From sequence record MN158206.1: DNA of 46,880 bases, one strand, 5' to 3'. The DNA comes from Escherichia phage BEK2. Below, one piece after another: positions 9,812 through 46,569 of this stretch. Position 1 is the first letter of the stretch. The number at the start of each line of letters is the position of its first letter. Both the position numbers and the translations under genes were made by a program. The notes below the pieces were generated by a model. The model had not been told where the DNA came from. It ran no database searches and saw only the letters and a program-made list of their open reading frames with translations.

Positions 9812-10468
9812 ATGGCTCATTTATCAAACGGCACTCAGGTGTTCGTAGAGGGTTCTCGTGGCGAAGCTGTTGCGGTTACAGCAATCTCTAACGCAGCAAG
9901 CCCTGTTTTAACCGTAGCTGACAGCTCTGGTATTGAGGTTGGTAATCACCTCCTGTTTACCGCGTCTTCCTCTACACTGCTTGCTGACAAGCACGTTCGA
10001 GTTACCGCAGTTACTGGTACATCAATCACAGTTGAAGGTATCGATACTTCTAACACCACAAAATTCCCGGCGGGGTTGACTGGTGAGGTGGTTAAGATTA
10101 TTTCCTGGTTCGAGGTTCCGTGCGTTCAGGACGTTTCCACTGACGGCGGCGAGCAGCAATTCGTTAACTTCCAATGCTTGTCCGATGACCGTGAGCAGCA
10201 GATTCCGACTTATAAATCTGCCGTAACTAACACCTTTACCTTTGCTCATGAGTACACCAACCCGGTTTATCCGGTTCTGCGTAACTACGATGAGTCAGGA
10301 CAGGTTGTCGCAATTCATCTGTATGTTCCACGTGCACAGGAGATGCGTTTGCAGTCCGGCACTATCGCTTTCAACGACACGCCAACCATCGGTGTTAACG
10401 AAATCGAAACGGTGTCCATCTCGGTATCAATTCGTGGTCGACTGTCCTCTGTGGCAGCACCAGTTTAA
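9812..10468 (+). CDS. major tail protein
   Basis: 218 aa, strong RBS, followed by terminator, upstream of chaperone/tape-measure genes. Confidence 0.6.
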   Translation: MAHLSNGTQVFVEGSRGEAVAVTAISNAASPVLTVADSSGIEVGNHLLFTASSSTLLADKHVRVTAVTGTSITVEGIDTSNTTKFPAGLTGEVVKIISWFEVPCVQDVSTDGGEQQFVNFQCLSDDREQQIPTYKSAVTNTFTFAHEYTNPVYPVLRNYDESGQVVAIHLYVPRAQEMRLQSGTIAFNDTPTIGVNEIETVSISVSIRGRLSSVAAPV

Positions 10469-10475
10469 AGCACAA

Positions 10476-10497
10476 ACCCTCTTCGGAGGGTTTTTTA
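10476..10497 (+). terminator. intrinsic terminator
   Basis: ccctc-ttcg-gaggg + T6. Confidence 0.7.
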
Positions 10498-10502
10498 TTG
10501 CA

Positions 10503-10545
10503 TAGCACTTTTTGCTAAAGCACTTATCCAATCTTCCTGTATAGT
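10503..10545 (+). promoter_or_regulatory. composite early-type promoter (TAGCACTTTTTGCTA + -10 TATAGT)
   Basis: box 10503-10517, -10 10540-10545, leader 'ctcATCGAAACGAAA'. Confidence 0.6.
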
Positions 10546-23295: not shown

Positions 23296-23780
23296 TTTAT
23301 CGCCAATTTCACCACAAATCACAGTTACACGTAACCGATGTAACTCGATGTATACAATCTCATTCGCGGAAAATGATATACGCGCCGTTACGCAAATTTA
23401 CGCAATAGTTACATTAAAATATCTATATATATCAACCTTTTACTATTATTATTATTATATATATTACTGTGTATATCATGTAACTACTGTTCTGGAGTGT
23501 TCCGGTTATAATTTTAATATCATGTGGATTTATACAGTATTGTGTGGCAGCCATACCAATGCACCCCCCGCAAGAAACGGTATACACGATATACACGATG
23601 GTTACATTGAGCTATATCTGGGCTGAGATGCCATTTTACGTAACAAGTTGCAATGCCTACACGGAATTACAAGTATTCACGCGTAAGTTTAAATCAACGA
23701 TTGGCAAAACCAATTGGACTGGCTACGGTACCGAATATATAGTTACCTCATCGAAAGCAAGCAACCAGAGAGATACAGAA
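23296..23780. repeat. divergent control region A: iterons + AT-rich microsatellite tract (candidate origin/operator region)
   Basis: GTTAC-AC-GTAAC inverted repeat 23324-23335, TTACGCAA x2 (23386-23404), tandem TATACACGA x2 (23581-23598), (TA)n/(TTA)n tract 23415-23490, shared block 23604-23646. Confidence 0.5.
23714..23743 (+). promoter_or_regulatory. rightward sigma70-like promoter of region A
   Basis: TTGGAC ... TATAGT (23738-23743) followed by leader 'cctcATCGAAAGCAAGCA'. Confidence 0.45.
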
Positions 23781-30446: not shown

Positions 30447-30932
30447 TCATCCATGAGAAATGTCTTTAGCTTTTCGTGCTGCCTCGTTAGCGGCCTTAAT
30501 CTTGCGCCATGAGCGACACTCTGGCTTGGTGGCTAATTCTGCATCAGTGACCACGCGCAGCATGTGACGTTTTTTGCAGCGCAGGGTTAGAGGCTTGCCA
30601 TTGCCGTCGAATTGCAGATCTGGTCGGCAGAATGTGGCTCTAAAACCTTCCCCGGTTCGTTTGTAGTAGTTGTGCGATAACTGAGCACCACGTGCGGAAA
30701 TCATGCCGCGCTTAAACCATTCTTCTACAGCCTGTGGTGTTACCTTTAGCTGCTTTGCGATATTCGCTTTTGTGCCGAAGAAATCAAGAACTATATCTAG
30801 TCGCGCGCGTAGTCCGGCTCTTACTTCATCTTTTAAAACGTAGTAGCCTGAAGGTCGTTTGCGTTGTTTTTTGTCTTCAGTGCGGATAGTTCCGTTGTTC
30901 CCGTTGATTGTTCGCTTGTCGACTGTATTCAT
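30447..30932 (-). CDS. HTH DNA-binding protein (candidate transcriptional regulator)
   Basis: 'TKANIAKQLKVTPQAVEEWFKRGMIS' helix-turn-helix; first gene of leftward operon; GAGGT RBS. Confidence 0.55.
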   Translation of the reverse strand: MNTVDKRTINGNNGTIRTEDKKQRKRPSGYYVLKDEVRAGLRARLDIVLDFFGTKANIAKQLKVTPQAVEEWFKRGMISARGAQLSHNYYKRTGEGFRATFCRPDLQFDGNGKPLTLRCKKRHMLRVVTDAELATKPECRSWRKIKAANEAARKAKDISHG

Positions 30933-30945
30933 TTCATTACCTCAG

Positions 30946-30988
30946 TAGCATTTTTTGTTAAAAGTCATTCTGATTTGATGGTAGTATT
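30946..30988 (+). promoter_or_regulatory. degenerate composite promoter (TAGCATTTTTTGTTA + -10 TAGTAT/AGTATT)
   Basis: box 30946-30960, -10 ~30982-30988 at 36-37 bp; precedes helicase. Confidence 0.4.
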
Positions 30989-31033
30989 GTACTCAATTAA
31001 ACGCTACAAGACAATTTTTATAGGAATTTAGAT

Positions 31034-37882: not shown

Positions 37883-39466
37883 TCACCCCAGCAGTCGCGG
37901 ATTAATGTAAACCTTATCACCAATCAGGCACGTGTAGTTTTTCTCGTCAAGCATTGGCAGTAGGTGATCTTTAATCTTCGTCATTACCCCAGCCTGAGCC
38001 TCGAACGGCTTAACCTTTCGAGCAGCTTCATATAATGAGCGAATACCAACTACACCCTTGCCGTTCTTTCCTTGCTTGATCAGGATATCAATCAGCTTAT
38101 TCATCTCGGCATTATCGCCAGCGTGACCAGCGGCGTTAGCAGATGAAAGATAAGTCTTGCTAAGTTCATTGAACATAATTACAGCTTCTTGCATGGTATC
38201 AAGCTCAATCTCTCTTGACTTCTGTGGACTCCCGCCATTTGGGTTAAACCAGTTACGCACAGTGTGAAGAACCGCCGCAATCCTGATGGCCTGCTTATCG
38301 AACTTACCCAGGGCGCCGCGCAACATTGTGTGGGAATACTTCCCGCCGTCCGCAAGGTGAGGCTCCATCTCCTGACGTGCGCGGTTAAGATACTTCATTG
38401 CTGAGTTGCTCACTGTCAACTTAACATCTTGCTCATTCATTATTTCATGAACTAATCGGAAATAGTCGGCCTTGAGTCCACCATCAATTGGCTCATATGT
38501 TGAATCTCCATTCTCATCAACAAACACACGCTCGCCCAAAAATGACTTTTCACGCACAAGCAGAAATCGCTCCGACACACCGATACCACGTGCGCCAGCG
38601 TTCATGATTGCATTGATTGTTTCGTCTTGCGCAATTACTGAGATGCAACCCATAGCAACGAAGCTCATGTTGTTCTCTGCGTTCGCACGCGCAATGGACA
38701 CGTTACCAGCATCCCATGCCTTCAGTACAAGTTCGCTGTTCGTCTTCTTGGATCCGTCACCGTACGTCATACCTAGCAGTGAGTTGACGCTCGTCGCCTC
38801 ATCAGAGATAACCGCGAAGTTACCTTGTCGGTTGTTTATTCGTGCCAGACCTTCCGGCGTGGTGTCGGATACAGGGAAAACGATATCACAAAGTTTCTCG
38901 AGCTTTTCCTCAAGCTCCTCCTTCTCCTCAAAAAGAGAAGCCATCTCTGAAGGAGATTTCTCCTGCTTCATCTCTTTGGATAATGCAGATAGTTTGGCCA
39001 TGATCTTCTTGCGCTCACGCTTGCGAACTTCATTAAGACGCTCAGTCTCAGCAATCATTGGAGCAATCGATAGCGAGTTAATTGCTGATTTACCAGTTGA
39101 TGGCGGCTGGCTTGTCACGACGTAGAGCGCAGTTGGTTGTTGGGTTCCATGATACTCAACTGTAAATCGGCCCAGCATCGCAGCGGAAATACACCCCAGG
39201 AAGTGCATGTATGCGGACGACTCAGGAAACTGAACCGAACGAGCTATGTTAGATGACAGTTTGCCAACAACATCAATATCATTACCTAGTGAGATTACGG
39301 GATACTTGTCATTAGCTGCATCAATCTCGACCGGAGCCTTCCAAAATGATTGAGAATGACGATAGCCATTGGCATTGATAGCGACGCGCAGGGGTGGGAG
39401 GTTGTCCGCAGCAGCAATTGCCATAACCTGTTCAACAGACAGTTTATCTTCGTTGAAATCAAACAT
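37883..39466 (-). CDS. P-loop ATPase, putative replication initiator/helicase
   Basis: Walker A 'SQPPSTGKSA', Walker B 'FAVISDEAT'; N- and C-terminal segments paralogous to 42798..43322. Confidence 0.65.
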   Translation of the reverse strand: MFDFNEDKLSVEQVMAIAAADNLPPLRVAINANGYRHSQSFWKAPVEIDAANDKYPVISLGNDIDVVGKLSSNIARSVQFPESSAYMHFLGCISAAMLGRFTVEYHGTQQPTALYVVTSQPPSTGKSAINSLSIAPMIAETERLNEVRKRERKKIMAKLSALSKEMKQEKSPSEMASLFEEKEELEEKLEKLCDIVFPVSDTTPEGLARINNRQGNFAVISDEATSVNSLLGMTYGDGSKKTNSELVLKAWDAGNVSIARANAENNMSFVAMGCISVIAQDETINAIMNAGARGIGVSERFLLVREKSFLGERVFVDENGDSTYEPIDGGLKADYFRLVHEIMNEQDVKLTVSNSAMKYLNRARQEMEPHLADGGKYSHTMLRGALGKFDKQAIRIAAVLHTVRNWFNPNGGSPQKSREIELDTMQEAVIMFNELSKTYLSSANAAGHAGDNAEMNKLIDILIKQGKNGKGVVGIRSLYEAARKVKPFEAQAGVMTKIKDHLLPMLDEKNYTCLIGDKVYINPRLLG

Positions 39467-39929: not shown

Positions 39930-39972
39930 AATATACAGGAAAAGCCCCGAAGGGCTTTAGCAATTAGTGCTA
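39930..39972 (-). promoter_or_regulatory. composite early-type promoter with embedded terminator hairpin
   Basis: box 39958-39972, hairpin aagccc-ttcg-gggctttt in spacer, -10 TATATT 39930-39935, leader 'tctcATCGAAACGAAAC'. Confidence 0.55.
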
Positions 39973-40208
39973 TTTATTTCCTTGAGTCCAAGTGGCGTTA
40001 TCACTACCTTATACCAAGTTCCAATCTCTGGCTTATTTACATTATATGCCAGCTCTACATAACCTAGCCGAAATAGTTTTGGTATACCTCTGGATGACTT
40101 GCCACAATCACGAATCCTGCCGCGATTAAGGTCATAGCTTATTTGATGAATCTCTCCATTATGAATACAGTGGAGGGTTTTTATTGCGGATTCAGAAATT
40201 TTAATCAC
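39957..40208 (-). CDS. hypothetical protein
   Basis: 83 aa, GTG start; C-terminus 'NSTNC' encoded by the box. Confidence 0.45.
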   Translation of the reverse strand: MIKISESAIKTLHCIHNGEIHQISYDLNRGRIRDCGKSSRGIPKLFRLGYVELAYNVNKPEIGTWYKVVITPLGLKEINSTNC

Positions 40209-41633: not shown

Positions 41634-41670
41634 TTTTGTGTCTCCGTGAGTTCTTCGTTTCGATGGAGTA

Positions 41671-41714
41671 ATAATAGCGAATCACACCCGATCGGTCATT
41701 AGCAAAAAGTGCTA
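41671..41714 (-). promoter_or_regulatory. composite early-type promoter (box TAGCACTTTTTGCTA + -10 TATTAT)
   Basis: box 41700-41714, -10 41671-41676, leader 'ctccATCGAAACGAAGAA'. Confidence 0.55.
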
Positions 41715-42300
41715 TTCGTTAGATTTATGGATTGTTGCAGATATTGCAATGATTCACATAATTATTGCACATACAGCAATATTGCTTCAGATGCAATGAT
41801 GTTTTTGATTGTTGCGAAAAGTGAAATGAAGTGGGGAGTGAGCGAATGAAAGATGGATGGACTACCATACAAGTTGATTTTGATTCTGGCTGGGCCATTT
41901 TCACGCCTACACGTAACGCCAGTAGCGCGATGTAAGCCAAGGCCAATCGTTACGTGAGTTACGCGCAGCTACGCCCGGACTTACACTATAAGTGCTTAAT
42001 ATATATATATATCTTCTTTCTATTATTATTATTAATATTAATATTATTGTATGTAAGTCGTGTAACGTGGGTCCTAGCGATATCTATATGTTTTTTCCTA
42101 TCAGAATACATTATTGCTATTTTATGTGGGATTTAGCCAGTATGGGGCCATTGCACTCATTTGCCTCGTTACACGCACGACACGAAACTACATTGAGCTA
42201 TAGCTGGGCTGGTGTGCCATTTCGCGTAACGACCCCCAAAAGTTACCAAAAATTACACTTGACTACATGTGTAAGTCGGGATATGATGGACTCAACTTAA
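41715..42300. repeat. divergent control region B: ATTGCA iteron array, GTTACG repeats, AT-rich tract, two copies of the shared block (candidate origin)
   Basis: (A/G)TTGC(A/T) about 7 copies 41730-41815; block copies about 41887-41920 and 42190-42232; (TA)n/(TTA)n tract 41995-42055. Confidence 0.5.
42259..42287 (+). promoter_or_regulatory. strong sigma70 promoter (rightward early)
   Basis: -35 TTGACT, 17-bp spacer, -10 TATGAT. Confidence 0.65.
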
Positions 42301-42318
42301 ACGAGAGGAGTGATAGAG

Positions 42319-42798
42319 ATGAACGAGAAGGTAACATTAGGCCAAGTGATTCGTGAGATGGTAAAGGCGGCGCTTAAGTCTGAGGATAAGCAGATCAGCG
42401 TGACACTCAACAAGATTGAGAGCCTTATTGGCGCAGAGGAGGGTGGTCTACATAAGCTTAAGAGCTCATACATCTATAATACAACGGCTCGCATGCCTGA
42501 GTTGAGAGATGCCGGACTGAAGGCGACCCACCATTATGATGAGGATGAGGGTGATAGTGAGTTTGGTGAAACCACTCTGGCTGGGGAAAAGAAGTTAGTT
42601 ATCAAGCTGATTCCTGGAGCTGCAAACATTGGAATCAGGAAGAAGACCAACGACGCGATCAAGGATGAGGCAATCAATGGGTTCAAGGCCAAGATTTCGA
42701 AGGTGATGCCAGACCTCTCTGAGTATGAGGGTGAAGCGCTTGCAGCCGCCATGAAGGCCATTAAGGATTACCGTTTAATTATTGAGGAGATTAAGTAA
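42319..42798 (+). CDS. hypothetical protein (first rightward early gene)
   Basis: ATG 42319 with GAGGAG RBS (track GTG 42310). Confidence 0.55.
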   Translation: MNEKVTLGQVIREMVKAALKSEDKQISVTLNKIESLIGAEEGGLHKLKSSYIYNTTARMPELRDAGLKATHHYDEDEGDSEFGETTLAGEKKLVIKLIPGAANIGIRKKTNDAIKDEAINGFKAKISKVMPDLSEYEGEALAAAMKAIKDYRLIIEEIK

Positions 42799-43322
42799 TG
42801 TTTGACTTTAACGAGGATAAACTGACAGAAGAGCAGGTTATGCAAGTAGCCATGGCAGATAGCCTTCCACCACTACGTGTTGCAATCAGCGCTAACGGGT
42901 ATCGACAGTCAACGGCGTTTTGGGGTTCGATTGATACCTCAGAGGTGTATAGTGGTGATGAGCTTGGTGTACTGATTAAAATCATCAGGAAAATGGGAGT
43001 TAACGGCAAAGGAGTTGTCGGCATTAGGTCTCTATACGAAGGTGCTCGCAAGGTTAAGCCCTTTGAGGGTAGCAATGGAATCATGGCGCGTATTAAGGAT
43101 GAGCTCATCCCAGCTCTAGAGGAAATTAATATCGCTTGCCTAATTGGAGATAAGATTTATGTCCACCCAGCTATCATTGATGAGTACTGGCAACCCAACT
43201 TCAAAACTTACGAAGGTGAGCACCCCAGTAGACTACCACACCACTTGCGATACAGTGACGATGAGATAATAAAGGCGATTCGGTTCTACTGGGAAGCTAA
43301 ATCACTGCTTAGCGGCGGATAG
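42798..43322 (+). CDS. truncated paralog of the 37883..39466 ATPase (N- and C-terminal domains only)
   Basis: 'MFDFNEDKLTEEQVMQVAMADSLPPLRVAISANGYRQS' and 'NGKGVVGIRSLYEGARKVKPFE...CLIGDKIYVHP' match both ends of the 527-aa protein. Confidence 0.6.
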   Translation: MFDFNEDKLTEEQVMQVAMADSLPPLRVAISANGYRQSTAFWGSIDTSEVYSGDELGVLIKIIRKMGVNGKGVVGIRSLYEGARKVKPFEGSNGIMARIKDELIPALEEINIACLIGDKIYVHPAIIDEYWQPNFKTYEGEHPSRLPHHLRYSDDEIIKAIRFYWEAKSLLSGG

Positions 43323-43362
43323 CACGAATTGCTAAAAGGGGATTCATCCTGACTGGTATAAT
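43320..43362 (+). promoter_or_regulatory. composite early-type promoter (TAGCACGAATTGCTA + -10 TATAAT)
   Basis: box 43320-43334, perfect TATAAT 43357-43362. Confidence 0.6.
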
Positions 43363-43516
43363 CCCCACATCAACCACGCGAATGGAAGTTAAGTGACCAT
43401 ATACGAACATAGATTCAGCAGCAGGGGTATTGATATGCTTCTGCACTATATAGACGAAAAATACGCAAAGCTCATGCTTAAGACGCATGGCGGCACAATA
43501 ACGAGGATTAACAAAA

Positions 43517-44149: not shown

Positions 44150-44150
44150 A

Positions 44151-44193
44151 TAGCACTTTTTGCCTAACCCTCTTCGGAGGGTTTTGTTATAGT
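44151..44193 (+). promoter_or_regulatory. composite promoter variant with embedded terminator (TAGCACTTTTTGCCTA, hairpin, -10 TGtTATAGT)
   Basis: box 44151-44166, hairpin ccctc-ttcg-gaggg + T4 (44167-44186), -10 44188-44193, leader 'tcccATCGAAAGCAAAC'. Confidence 0.55.
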
Positions 44194-46492: not shown

Positions 46493-46569
46493 GCTCGAGT
46501 GGCGAAAGTGGATATCGCAAGAGACTTCTAATCTCTAGATTGCTGGTTCGAATCCAGCCTCGGGCGCCA
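46493..46569 (+). tRNA. tRNA-Arg (anticodon UCU)
   Basis: hand-folded cloverleaf: acceptor GCTCGAG/CTCGGGC (one G-U), D-stem GCGA/TCGC with GG in loop, anticodon stem AGAGA/TCTCT, loop CT-TCT-AA, T-arm GCTGG-TTCGAAT-CCAGC, discriminator G, encoded CCA. Confidence 0.8.

Follow-up and report, generated by a model that had tools for sequence, protein, structure and literature searches.

The stretch of DNA analyzed here, referred to as the window, comprises 46,880 nucleotides from Escherichia phage BEK2 (record MN158206.1) and contains, at positions 42319-42798 on the plus strand, a gene for a 159-residue protein of the family DUF7174, which is preceded by a sigma-70-type promoter and by short repeats grouped around an AT-rich tract. 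We propose with moderate confidence that this gene encodes an early, self-regulating DNA-binding protein that acts on the adjoining repeat/AT-rich element, which would be origin-like or regulatory in nature. The fold of the protein, the repeat statistics, the joint replacement of gene and repeats among relatives and the conservation of the promoter were computed; DNA binding, self-regulation, early timing and origin function are what we infer. The features of the locus are given below.

41909-41986: left array of five RYGTAAS repeats in both orientations (CACGTAACG, ATGTAAGCC, CGTTACGTG, GTTACGCG, GGACTTACAC)
41996-42048: AT-rich tract of 53 bp, a (TA)n followed by a (TTA)n microsatellite
42051-42068, plus strand: two tandem 9-nt repeats directly to the right of the AT tract (TGTAAGTCG, TGTAACGTG)
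42165-42232: two more repeat copies (CGTTACACG, GCGTAACGA), plus a stretch in common with element A (ACATTGAGCTATAGCTGGGCTG...GCCATTT; see below)
42259-42287, plus strand: sigma-70-type promoter with -35 TTGACT (42259-42264), a 17-nt spacer and -10 TATGAT (42282-42287), 10 of 12 consensus matches
42270-42278, plus strand: spacer repeat TGTAAGTCG between -35 and -10, clade-specific, candidate operator for self-regulation
42303-42310, plus strand: ribosome-binding site GAGAGGAG, with GAGGAG at 42305-42310, 8 nt before the ATG
42319-42798, plus strand: DUF7174 protein of 159 residues, with a predicted winged helix (residues 1-99, recognition helix 49-57) and a predicted C-terminal helical hairpin (108-158)
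42798-43322, plus strand: 174-residue "mini-helicase", whose start overlaps the DUF7174 stop codon (TAATG) and which consists of the terminal segments of a DUF3987 helicase without the ATPase core

The 2.6 kb around the promoter and the open reading frame (ORF) are 100% identical to Escherichia phage BEK3 (MN158207.1, 46,884 bp; Drexlerviridae, Braunvirinae), whose record labels the 159-residue homologue only as "hypothetical protein, JK_47P". The loci of distant relatives were reached by tblastn; no stretch was conserved enough for a locus search based on alignment. In every locus inspected, the DUF7174 gene is the first one to the right of a divergent non-coding region of about 550-700 bp, except in Samwise, where it is the second. 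In the window this divergent intergenic region amounts to 685 bp and consists, from left to right, of the box of a leftward promoter, a block of TTGCAAT-type repeats, the array of short repeats, the (TA)n(TTA)n tract, the two tandem 9-nt repeats, two further copies and the promoter, a modular layout that recurs in all relatives. Two 34-residue ORFs within the region (at 41831 and 41853) showed no coding conservation in relatives, and a search for known RNAs in Rfam gave only a sub-threshold match there (ES003, 22 bits versus a gathering score of 37).

The promoter and the DUF7174 protein

A first-pass annotation of this DNA had described TTGACT-17-TATGAT, a GAGGAG ribosome-binding site and a 159-residue ORF, and a check of the sequence found all three in place. 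The distance from the -10 hexamer to the ATG at 42319 is 31 nt, and transcription would start near 42294. The same annotation had called this promoter the strongest in the window, but in our own genome-wide weight-matrix scan it ties for second place. By consensus matches, one site reaches 11/12, on the minus strand (2845-2816), antisense within a structural gene, and 15 other sites also have 10/12. Also, the built-in scan found 26 consensus-like sites versus 33.9 expected in shuffled sequence, so that a match to the consensus alone is no better than chance. The promoter is credible because of its intergenic location and right orientation, because it is the top-scoring site among the intergenic ones that face a gene, and because its position is conserved. 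When 21 related loci from four subfamilies were compared, 18 were seen to carry a sigma-70-type site (8-12 of 12 matches) located 25-41 nt upstream of the homologous start codon, and these include loci whose DNA is unalignable. The counterpart in swan01, TTGACA-16-TATAAT, matches at 12 of 12 positions, and the record of phage EC3a annotates a predicted promoter at the same place.

About 20 of the promoters in this genome belong to a different type, the box promoters described further below. Canonical intergenic promoters comprise only the one at 42259 and that of a Cro-like gene, together with a weaker one at 23715 in element A. Few canonical sites amid box promoters is the layout that would be expected if those units were read by unmodified host RNA polymerase. 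The site at 42259-42287 thus appears to be a genuine host sigma-70 promoter needing no phage factor and, as no such factor would be required, expression of the DUF7174 gene probably begins among the earliest in infection (immediate-early). The earlier description of an early gene behind a host-type promoter receives indirect support from this layout. A literature search retrieved no transcriptome of a T1-like or other Drexlerviridae phage.

The protein had been described as lacking any recognisable motif. However, it matches Pfam DUF7174 (PF23796) over residues 1-158 (E = 7e-48, 162.7 bits versus a cut-off of 27) as well as phrog_4841, both of them families without an assigned function, and PF23796 is carried by all 66 homologues checked. 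Close homologues are present in 138 phage records, a divergent branch contributes 220 more (Tempevirinae and phages of Klebsiella, Salmonella and Citrobacter), and a profile search of 1.84 billion representative proteins returned only 40 clusters. T1 has a remote homologue in gp77 (hhalign probability 96.3%), the ORF with which its record begins, and identity across subfamilies is only 14-35%. Judged from these sequences and their synteny, the DUF7174 gene is a syntenic core gene of the Drexlerviridae and not a variable accessory gene. Searches of PDB sequences gave nothing with the single protein and one chance match (E = 0.07) with the profile, neither NCBIfam nor PADLOC gave a match, and no paper mentioning DUF7174 was found in the literature search.

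A first AlphaFold model of the protein had a pLDDT of 72, and a more diverse alignment led to a model with a pLDDT of 86.3 and a pTM of 0.63. In this model, helices are formed by residues 7-20, 30-37, 43-46, 49-57 and 60-64, a strand by residues 25-29, a strand hairpin by residues 67-75 and 91-99, and two further helices by residues 108-129 and 138-158, and the predicted topology agrees with the winged-helix order H1-S1-H2-H3-S2-wing-S3. The conserved residues K48, S50, Y51, N54, T55 and R58 cluster on the predicted recognition helix (helix 3, residues 49-57); throughout the family R58 is invariant, Y51 and T55 are conserved in at least 90%, and the motif SY(I/V)xNTxxR of this helix is kept. 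As a whole the protein is close to neutral (pI 5.99; 25 K+R versus 27 D+E). It is predicted to be a winged-helix DNA-binding protein, and the C-terminal helical hairpin of the model could mediate dimerisation.

Repeats around the AT-rich tract and a proposed mechanism

The motif RYGTAASB occurs 10 times in 391 bp upstream of the gene, versus 0.34 occurrences expected from the rest of the genome, although Poisson p-values for this excess are optimistic because the motif was defined after inspecting the sequence. Three of the four genomic copies of TGTAAGTC are located here, two of them flanking the AT tract as an inverted pair and the third lying in the promoter spacer, and GTAAGTCG is unaltered in the promoter spacers of 7 close relatives. 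Tracts of (TTA) with at least 4 units exist at only two places in the genome, 23446 and 42023, and the length of the (TA)n(TTA)n tract differs between phages. The arrangement of two tandem repeats, with a sequence specific for each clade, was present in all Braunvirinae and Rogunavirinae loci examined (TGTATACCG twice in JeanPiccard, ATGTATATC twice in Rtp and ATGTAGATA twice in P818). The idea that one YGTAA core holds for all Drexlerviridae was discarded, as the enrichment of 5-mers differs in swan01, Samwise and T1.

A comparison with JeanPiccard, Sd1, IME253, a 12210I-like phage and others, whose DUF7174 proteins are about 33-38% identical to the one studied here, showed that positions 41652-41900 align at 87-93% and that alignment is regained from 42777 (mini-helicase gene) at 64-76%. 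The segment 41900-42777 is unalignable to these phages and corresponds exactly to the repeats, the AT tract, the promoter and the ORF. An unalignable segment between aligned flanks indicates that the cis-elements and the DUF7174 gene were replaced together, and in specificity modules of the initiator-origin or repressor-operator type cis-elements and gene are likewise replaced as a unit.

The region upstream of the DUF7174 gene, element B, has a counterpart elsewhere in the genome.

23300-23745: element A, a paralogous region of repeats, AT tract, tandem repeats and promoter, flanked by the Rha/Roi-like gene on the minus strand and by the recombination operon on the plus strand

No other part of the genome is as dense in YGTAAS/YGTATA repeats as elements A and B, each of which is marked by a (TTA) tract; their common layout extends to the stretch ACATTGAGCTATA.CTGGGCTG...GCCATTT and to a box-free rightward promoter. 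The genome may have two origins, or else two regions of early control. An A-like region is also present in T1 (positions 9852-10378 of the T1 sequence examined).

In the mechanism that we propose, host sigma-70 would read the promoter at 42259 without a phage factor and the DUF7174 protein would be among the first proteins made. It would then bind RYGTAAS-type repeats within the 400 bp upstream of its own gene. As one repeat lies between -35 and -10, binding at this place would shut down the protein's own promoter and result in negative self-regulation, and binding at the inverted copies that flank the AT microsatellite and at the tandem pair might organise a replication origin or a switch governing the two divergent early operons. 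Binding to repeats next to its own gene, the copy in the promoter included, would therefore combine self-regulation with control of the AT-rich element. A comparison of promoter spacers with random genomic windows is partly in line with this mechanism, with the spacers having more 8-9-nt words in common with the upstream region (empirical p of 0.011-0.067 in five of eight independent clades).

Several observations weigh against this proposal. In two of the remaining clades the p-value for the spacer words was 0.09-0.11 and in one it was 0.83, which means no signal; in three clades the word shared with the spacer is not a repeat of the YGTA type, and the spacer of Tempevirinae is without an obvious repeat. 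The wing loop of the DUF7174 protein is acidic (DEDEGDSEFGE; pI of 4.05 for loop 76-91), which is unusual for a wing that contacts DNA. The block that was replaced as a whole could reflect simple linkage and not a functional pairing. Furthermore, element A is 82-89% identical among this phage, JeanPiccard and Rtp, the DUF7174 proteins of which are only about 33% identical. Since element A is kept whichever type of DUF7174 is present, YGTAAC/TGTATA repeats do not, as a class, co-vary with the protein, a strict co-variation of all repeats is ruled out, and our confidence in the pairing of DUF7174 with the repeats was lowered. Either another conserved factor may bind the YGTAAC/TGTATA repeats, with DUF7174 reading only the clade-specific copies in element B, or the nearly invariant recognition helix reads a core that is common to elements A and B.

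With regard to what the element does, a replication origin is weakly favoured over a purely transcriptional role, and still we would call the origin version doubtful when it is set among all readings. Somewhat more doubtful is its full form, according to which elements A (about 23.3-23.7 kb) and B (about 41.9-42.3 kb) would be T1-like replication origins and DUF7174 a fast-evolving, self-regulated recognition protein for origin B that loads the DUF3987 helicase with the help of the co-translated protein made of helicase termini. Classical T1 genetics argues against an essential initiator at this locus, as DNA-negative mutants are known only for genes 1 and 2, which map to the opposite end. For T1-like phages neither an origin nor an initiator is known (PMC11447400), and if the origin reading were true, DUF7174 would represent a compact initiator whose architecture, one winged helix and a helical hairpin, is new.

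Box promoters and neighbouring genes

A 21-nt intergenic repeat, aaATAGCACnnnTTGnTAAAA, was described in phage TLS without an assigned function (PMC11447400). The repeat of this type in the present genome, ATAGCACnnnTTGnTAA, has 23 core matches versus 1.67 expected, all of them oriented with transcription. At its core the box is palindromic (TAGCA-N5-TGCTA, dyad at about -42). Of the 23 sites, 16 possess a good -10 hexamer exactly 22 nt downstream of TTGnTA, and in none of the 23 was a -35-like hexamer found at 17-bp spacing. A conserved leader, TCATCGAAACGAA, is located downstream of the -10 in box promoters, and the box is identical in TLS, T1 and this phage. Box promoters look like activator-dependent promoters, and activator dependence would answer the question that the TLS paper left open on the repeat. 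Features related to the box promoters and to the neighbourhood of the DUF7174 gene are listed here.

504, 2649, 10502, 21758 (minus strand), 22504 (minus strand), 24945, 33441, 39973 (minus strand), 41344 (minus strand), 41715 (minus strand), 43319 and 44852: box sites, as examples of the 23
30447-30932, minus strand: Cro-like helix-turn-helix regulator (phrog_2856, homologue of T1 gp23), with upstream region 30933-31033
31014-30986, minus strand: promoter of the Cro-like gene, TTGTCT-17-TACAAT, which reads across a degenerate box at 30945-30961
41699-41715, minus strand: box (ATAGCACTTTTTGCTAA) belonging to the leftward, divergent promoter at the head of the helicase operon
41734-41830: conserved block with TTGCAAT / AGCAATATTGCT repeats, outside the replaced block and 87-93% identical across Braunvirinae even beside replaced DNA

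The Cro-like regulator is found in 824 phage records, with 52-66% identity across the subfamilies of Drexlerviridae. As this conservation matches the invariance of the box, and as the gene has its own canonical promoter reading across a degenerate box, the box is assigned to the Cro-like protein, which is provisionally the best candidate for an activator that binds it.

In several box promoters, a GC-rich hairpin with T-run belonging to the upstream unit is located between the box and the -10 (for example AACCCTCTTCGGAGGGTT at 44166-44183); such sites are 44150-44190, 39940-39973 (minus strand), 10480-10545 and others, and this placement means that terminator and promoter are interleaved. An extended -10 with a perfect hexamer, TGGTATAAT at 43353-43361, was noticed upstream of a 43-residue ORF at 43393; it was rejected as an independent promoter, being the -10 of the box promoter at 43319.

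The first-pass annotation had seen a truncated ATPase paralog downstream of the DUF7174 gene, and sequence comparison confirms a paralogue of the phage's own DUF3987 helicase that is devoid of the ATPase core. With this helicase (37883-39466, minus strand), the full gene of which belongs to the divergent leftward operon, the 174-residue ORF shows 55% identity over residues 1-73 and 59% over residues 448-526. About 50 residues of the helicase N-terminus and about 80 of its C-terminus are what the ORF keeps, and its translation is coupled to that of the DUF7174 gene. A mini-helicase ORF follows the DUF7174 gene in most Braunvirinae and Rogunavirinae, is truncated or absent at this place in Rtp, EC3a and MM01, and is itself followed by a gene for a dNMP-kinase-like protein. 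In T1, the second gene has only the N-terminal hexapeptide MFNIKP in common with T1 gp9. Possible roles of the mini-helicase are those of a regulator, of an adaptor or of a decoy for a binder of the helicase ends.

Position 1 of the T1 GenBank record, which is the start of a 2.8-kb terminal repeat, falls into the block homologous to 41734-41830, and for this reason the block may be a packaging (pac) site; another possible interpretation is a different binding array. The literature search yielded nothing usable on the location of the pac site in T1-like phages. GC skew was discarded as a marker for an origin, as it is uninformative and tracks gene orientation. The window is 4 nt shorter than MN158207.1 and the coordinate offset between them increases along the genome (0 at 21 kb, 3 at 24 kb and 4 at 42 kb), indicating a few small indels. 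A tRNA-Arg gene (anticodon TCT) at 46493-46569, in the rightward cluster of small genes, is kept in AugustePiccard, EC3a and JeanPiccard, and a homing endonuclease gene at 576-1088 lies, according to the BEK3 annotation, between the genes for the small and large terminase subunits.

Alternative explanations and comparable systems

If the winged helix were a protein-protein adaptor, it would regulate or load the DUF3987 helicase together with the co-translated mini-helicase, and other factors would bind the repeats. We consider this unlikely, because the mini-helicase is truncated or missing downstream of the gene in Rtp, EC3a and MM01, because T1 retains nothing but the N-terminal MFNIKP in common, and because the conserved polar and basic residues of helix 3 are typical of DNA recognition. 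An improbable alternative, too, is that a DUF7174 dimer is the early activator of the roughly 20 box promoters, binding to TAGCA-N5-TGCTA at -42 and recruiting host RNA polymerase as T4 MotA or class II activators do. The gene is indeed the first one behind one of the few box-free canonical promoters, its product has a predicted winged helix and a possibly dimerising hairpin, and SY(I/V)xNTxxR is maintained family-wide, a constancy comparable to that of the box, which is the same in TLS, T1 and this phage (PMC11447400). However, no box is present near the DUF7174 promoter, DUF7174 proteins differ widely between subfamilies (14-35% identity), and the Cro-like regulator, with its 824 records, its 52-66% identity across subfamilies and its own canonical promoter, is the better candidate.

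The first-pass annotation had suggested an anti-restriction or host shut-off function for the gene, a suggestion that gained no support from a core syntenic gene whose product has a pI of 6.0 and a predicted winged helix. A protein made first after entry of the DNA in order to counter restriction, other defences or the host would fit the early position behind a strong host-type promoter and the fast divergence of the gene and its upstream DNA, as is seen in arms-race genes, and the mechanism by which T1-like phages shut off the host is still an open matter (PMC11447400). Nevertheless, we regard such a function as quite improbable: synteny is fixed across the Drexlerviridae, a pI of 6.0 does not correspond to an acidic DNA mimic, and PADLOC, NCBIfam and PDB sequences gave no match. 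Structure prediction had been suggested as a check for a DNA-mimic or inhibitor fold, and what AlphaFold gives is the winged helix with helical hairpin. Among BASEL phages, the Bas01 protein is 87% identical to the DUF7174 protein and Bas02 also carries a homologue; the family of BASEL phages with such close homologues was reported, at the level of the family, to be mostly very sensitive to restriction-modification systems (PMC8594841). Finally, the promoter match might be a chance hit to the consensus and the gene might be transcribed from elsewhere, as the genome holds 16 sites with 10/12 matches and such sites are not enriched over shuffled sequence. This is highly improbable in view of a site position that is conserved among the 21 loci (18 of 21) despite sequence divergence, of an upstream stretch of 600 bp that holds neither a box promoter nor another candidate, and of a leader, TCAACTTAAACGA, that resembles the leaders of box promoters.

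T1 belongs to the seven classical T phages, and phages related to it rank among the most common coliphages and contaminants of laboratories. Under the proposal of an early, self-regulating DNA-binding protein, a "hypothetical protein" becomes part of a testable pairing of a host-type promoter (one of two or three in the genome), a predicted winged-helix protein and repeats around an AT-rich tract that is present in two copies. The replication origin, the initiator, host shut-off and the transcription programme of T1-like phages were listed as open questions in the 2024 TLS paper (PMC11447400). If true, the proposal would reveal where the regulatory cascade begins and possibly where the origins lie, both of which would be useful for phage engineering and for reading the triggers of defence systems; if refuted, the gene would stay an ordinary conserved early gene without an assigned function.

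Ocr and ArdA are strongly acidic, helical DNA mimics encoded by accessory genes. The DUF7174 gene is like them in probably being a first gene expressed from a strong host-type promoter and differs in the pI of 6.0, the predicted winged helix and the status of a syntenic core gene. The early-gene logic of T4 MotA and of class II activators such as CRP would also apply here: the product of a gene with a host-type promoter turns on other promoters, which have no -35. Class II activators bind at a position that matches the box of this phage (-42). This likeness concerns the box promoters, to which DUF7174 has no demonstrated link and for which the Cro-like regulator is the likelier binder. In CtsR, a stress repressor of Bacillus, a basic wing inserts into the minor groove, whereas the wing loop of DUF7174 is acidic and there is no sequence similarity between the two proteins.

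The initiators RepE of mini-F, Pi of R6K and RepA of pPS10 have two winged-helix domains (Pfam Rep_3) and bind direct repeats of 19-22 bp. The DUF7174 protein, in contrast, has one winged-helix domain and a helical hairpin, shows no sequence similarity to them and matches DUF7174 as its only Pfam family; the DNA studied here has an AT-rich tract flanked by repeats, but these are 8-9 nt long and of mixed orientation, and the element is duplicated in the genome. Lambda O and SPP1 G38P are early proteins with an N-terminal winged helix that bind repeats beside an AT-rich region, their helicase-loading partner is encoded immediately downstream, and SPP1 has two copies of its origin. In these phages the origin is located inside the initiator gene, whereas here the repeats are upstream of the gene, and no sequence match or significant structural match to the DUF7174 protein was found.

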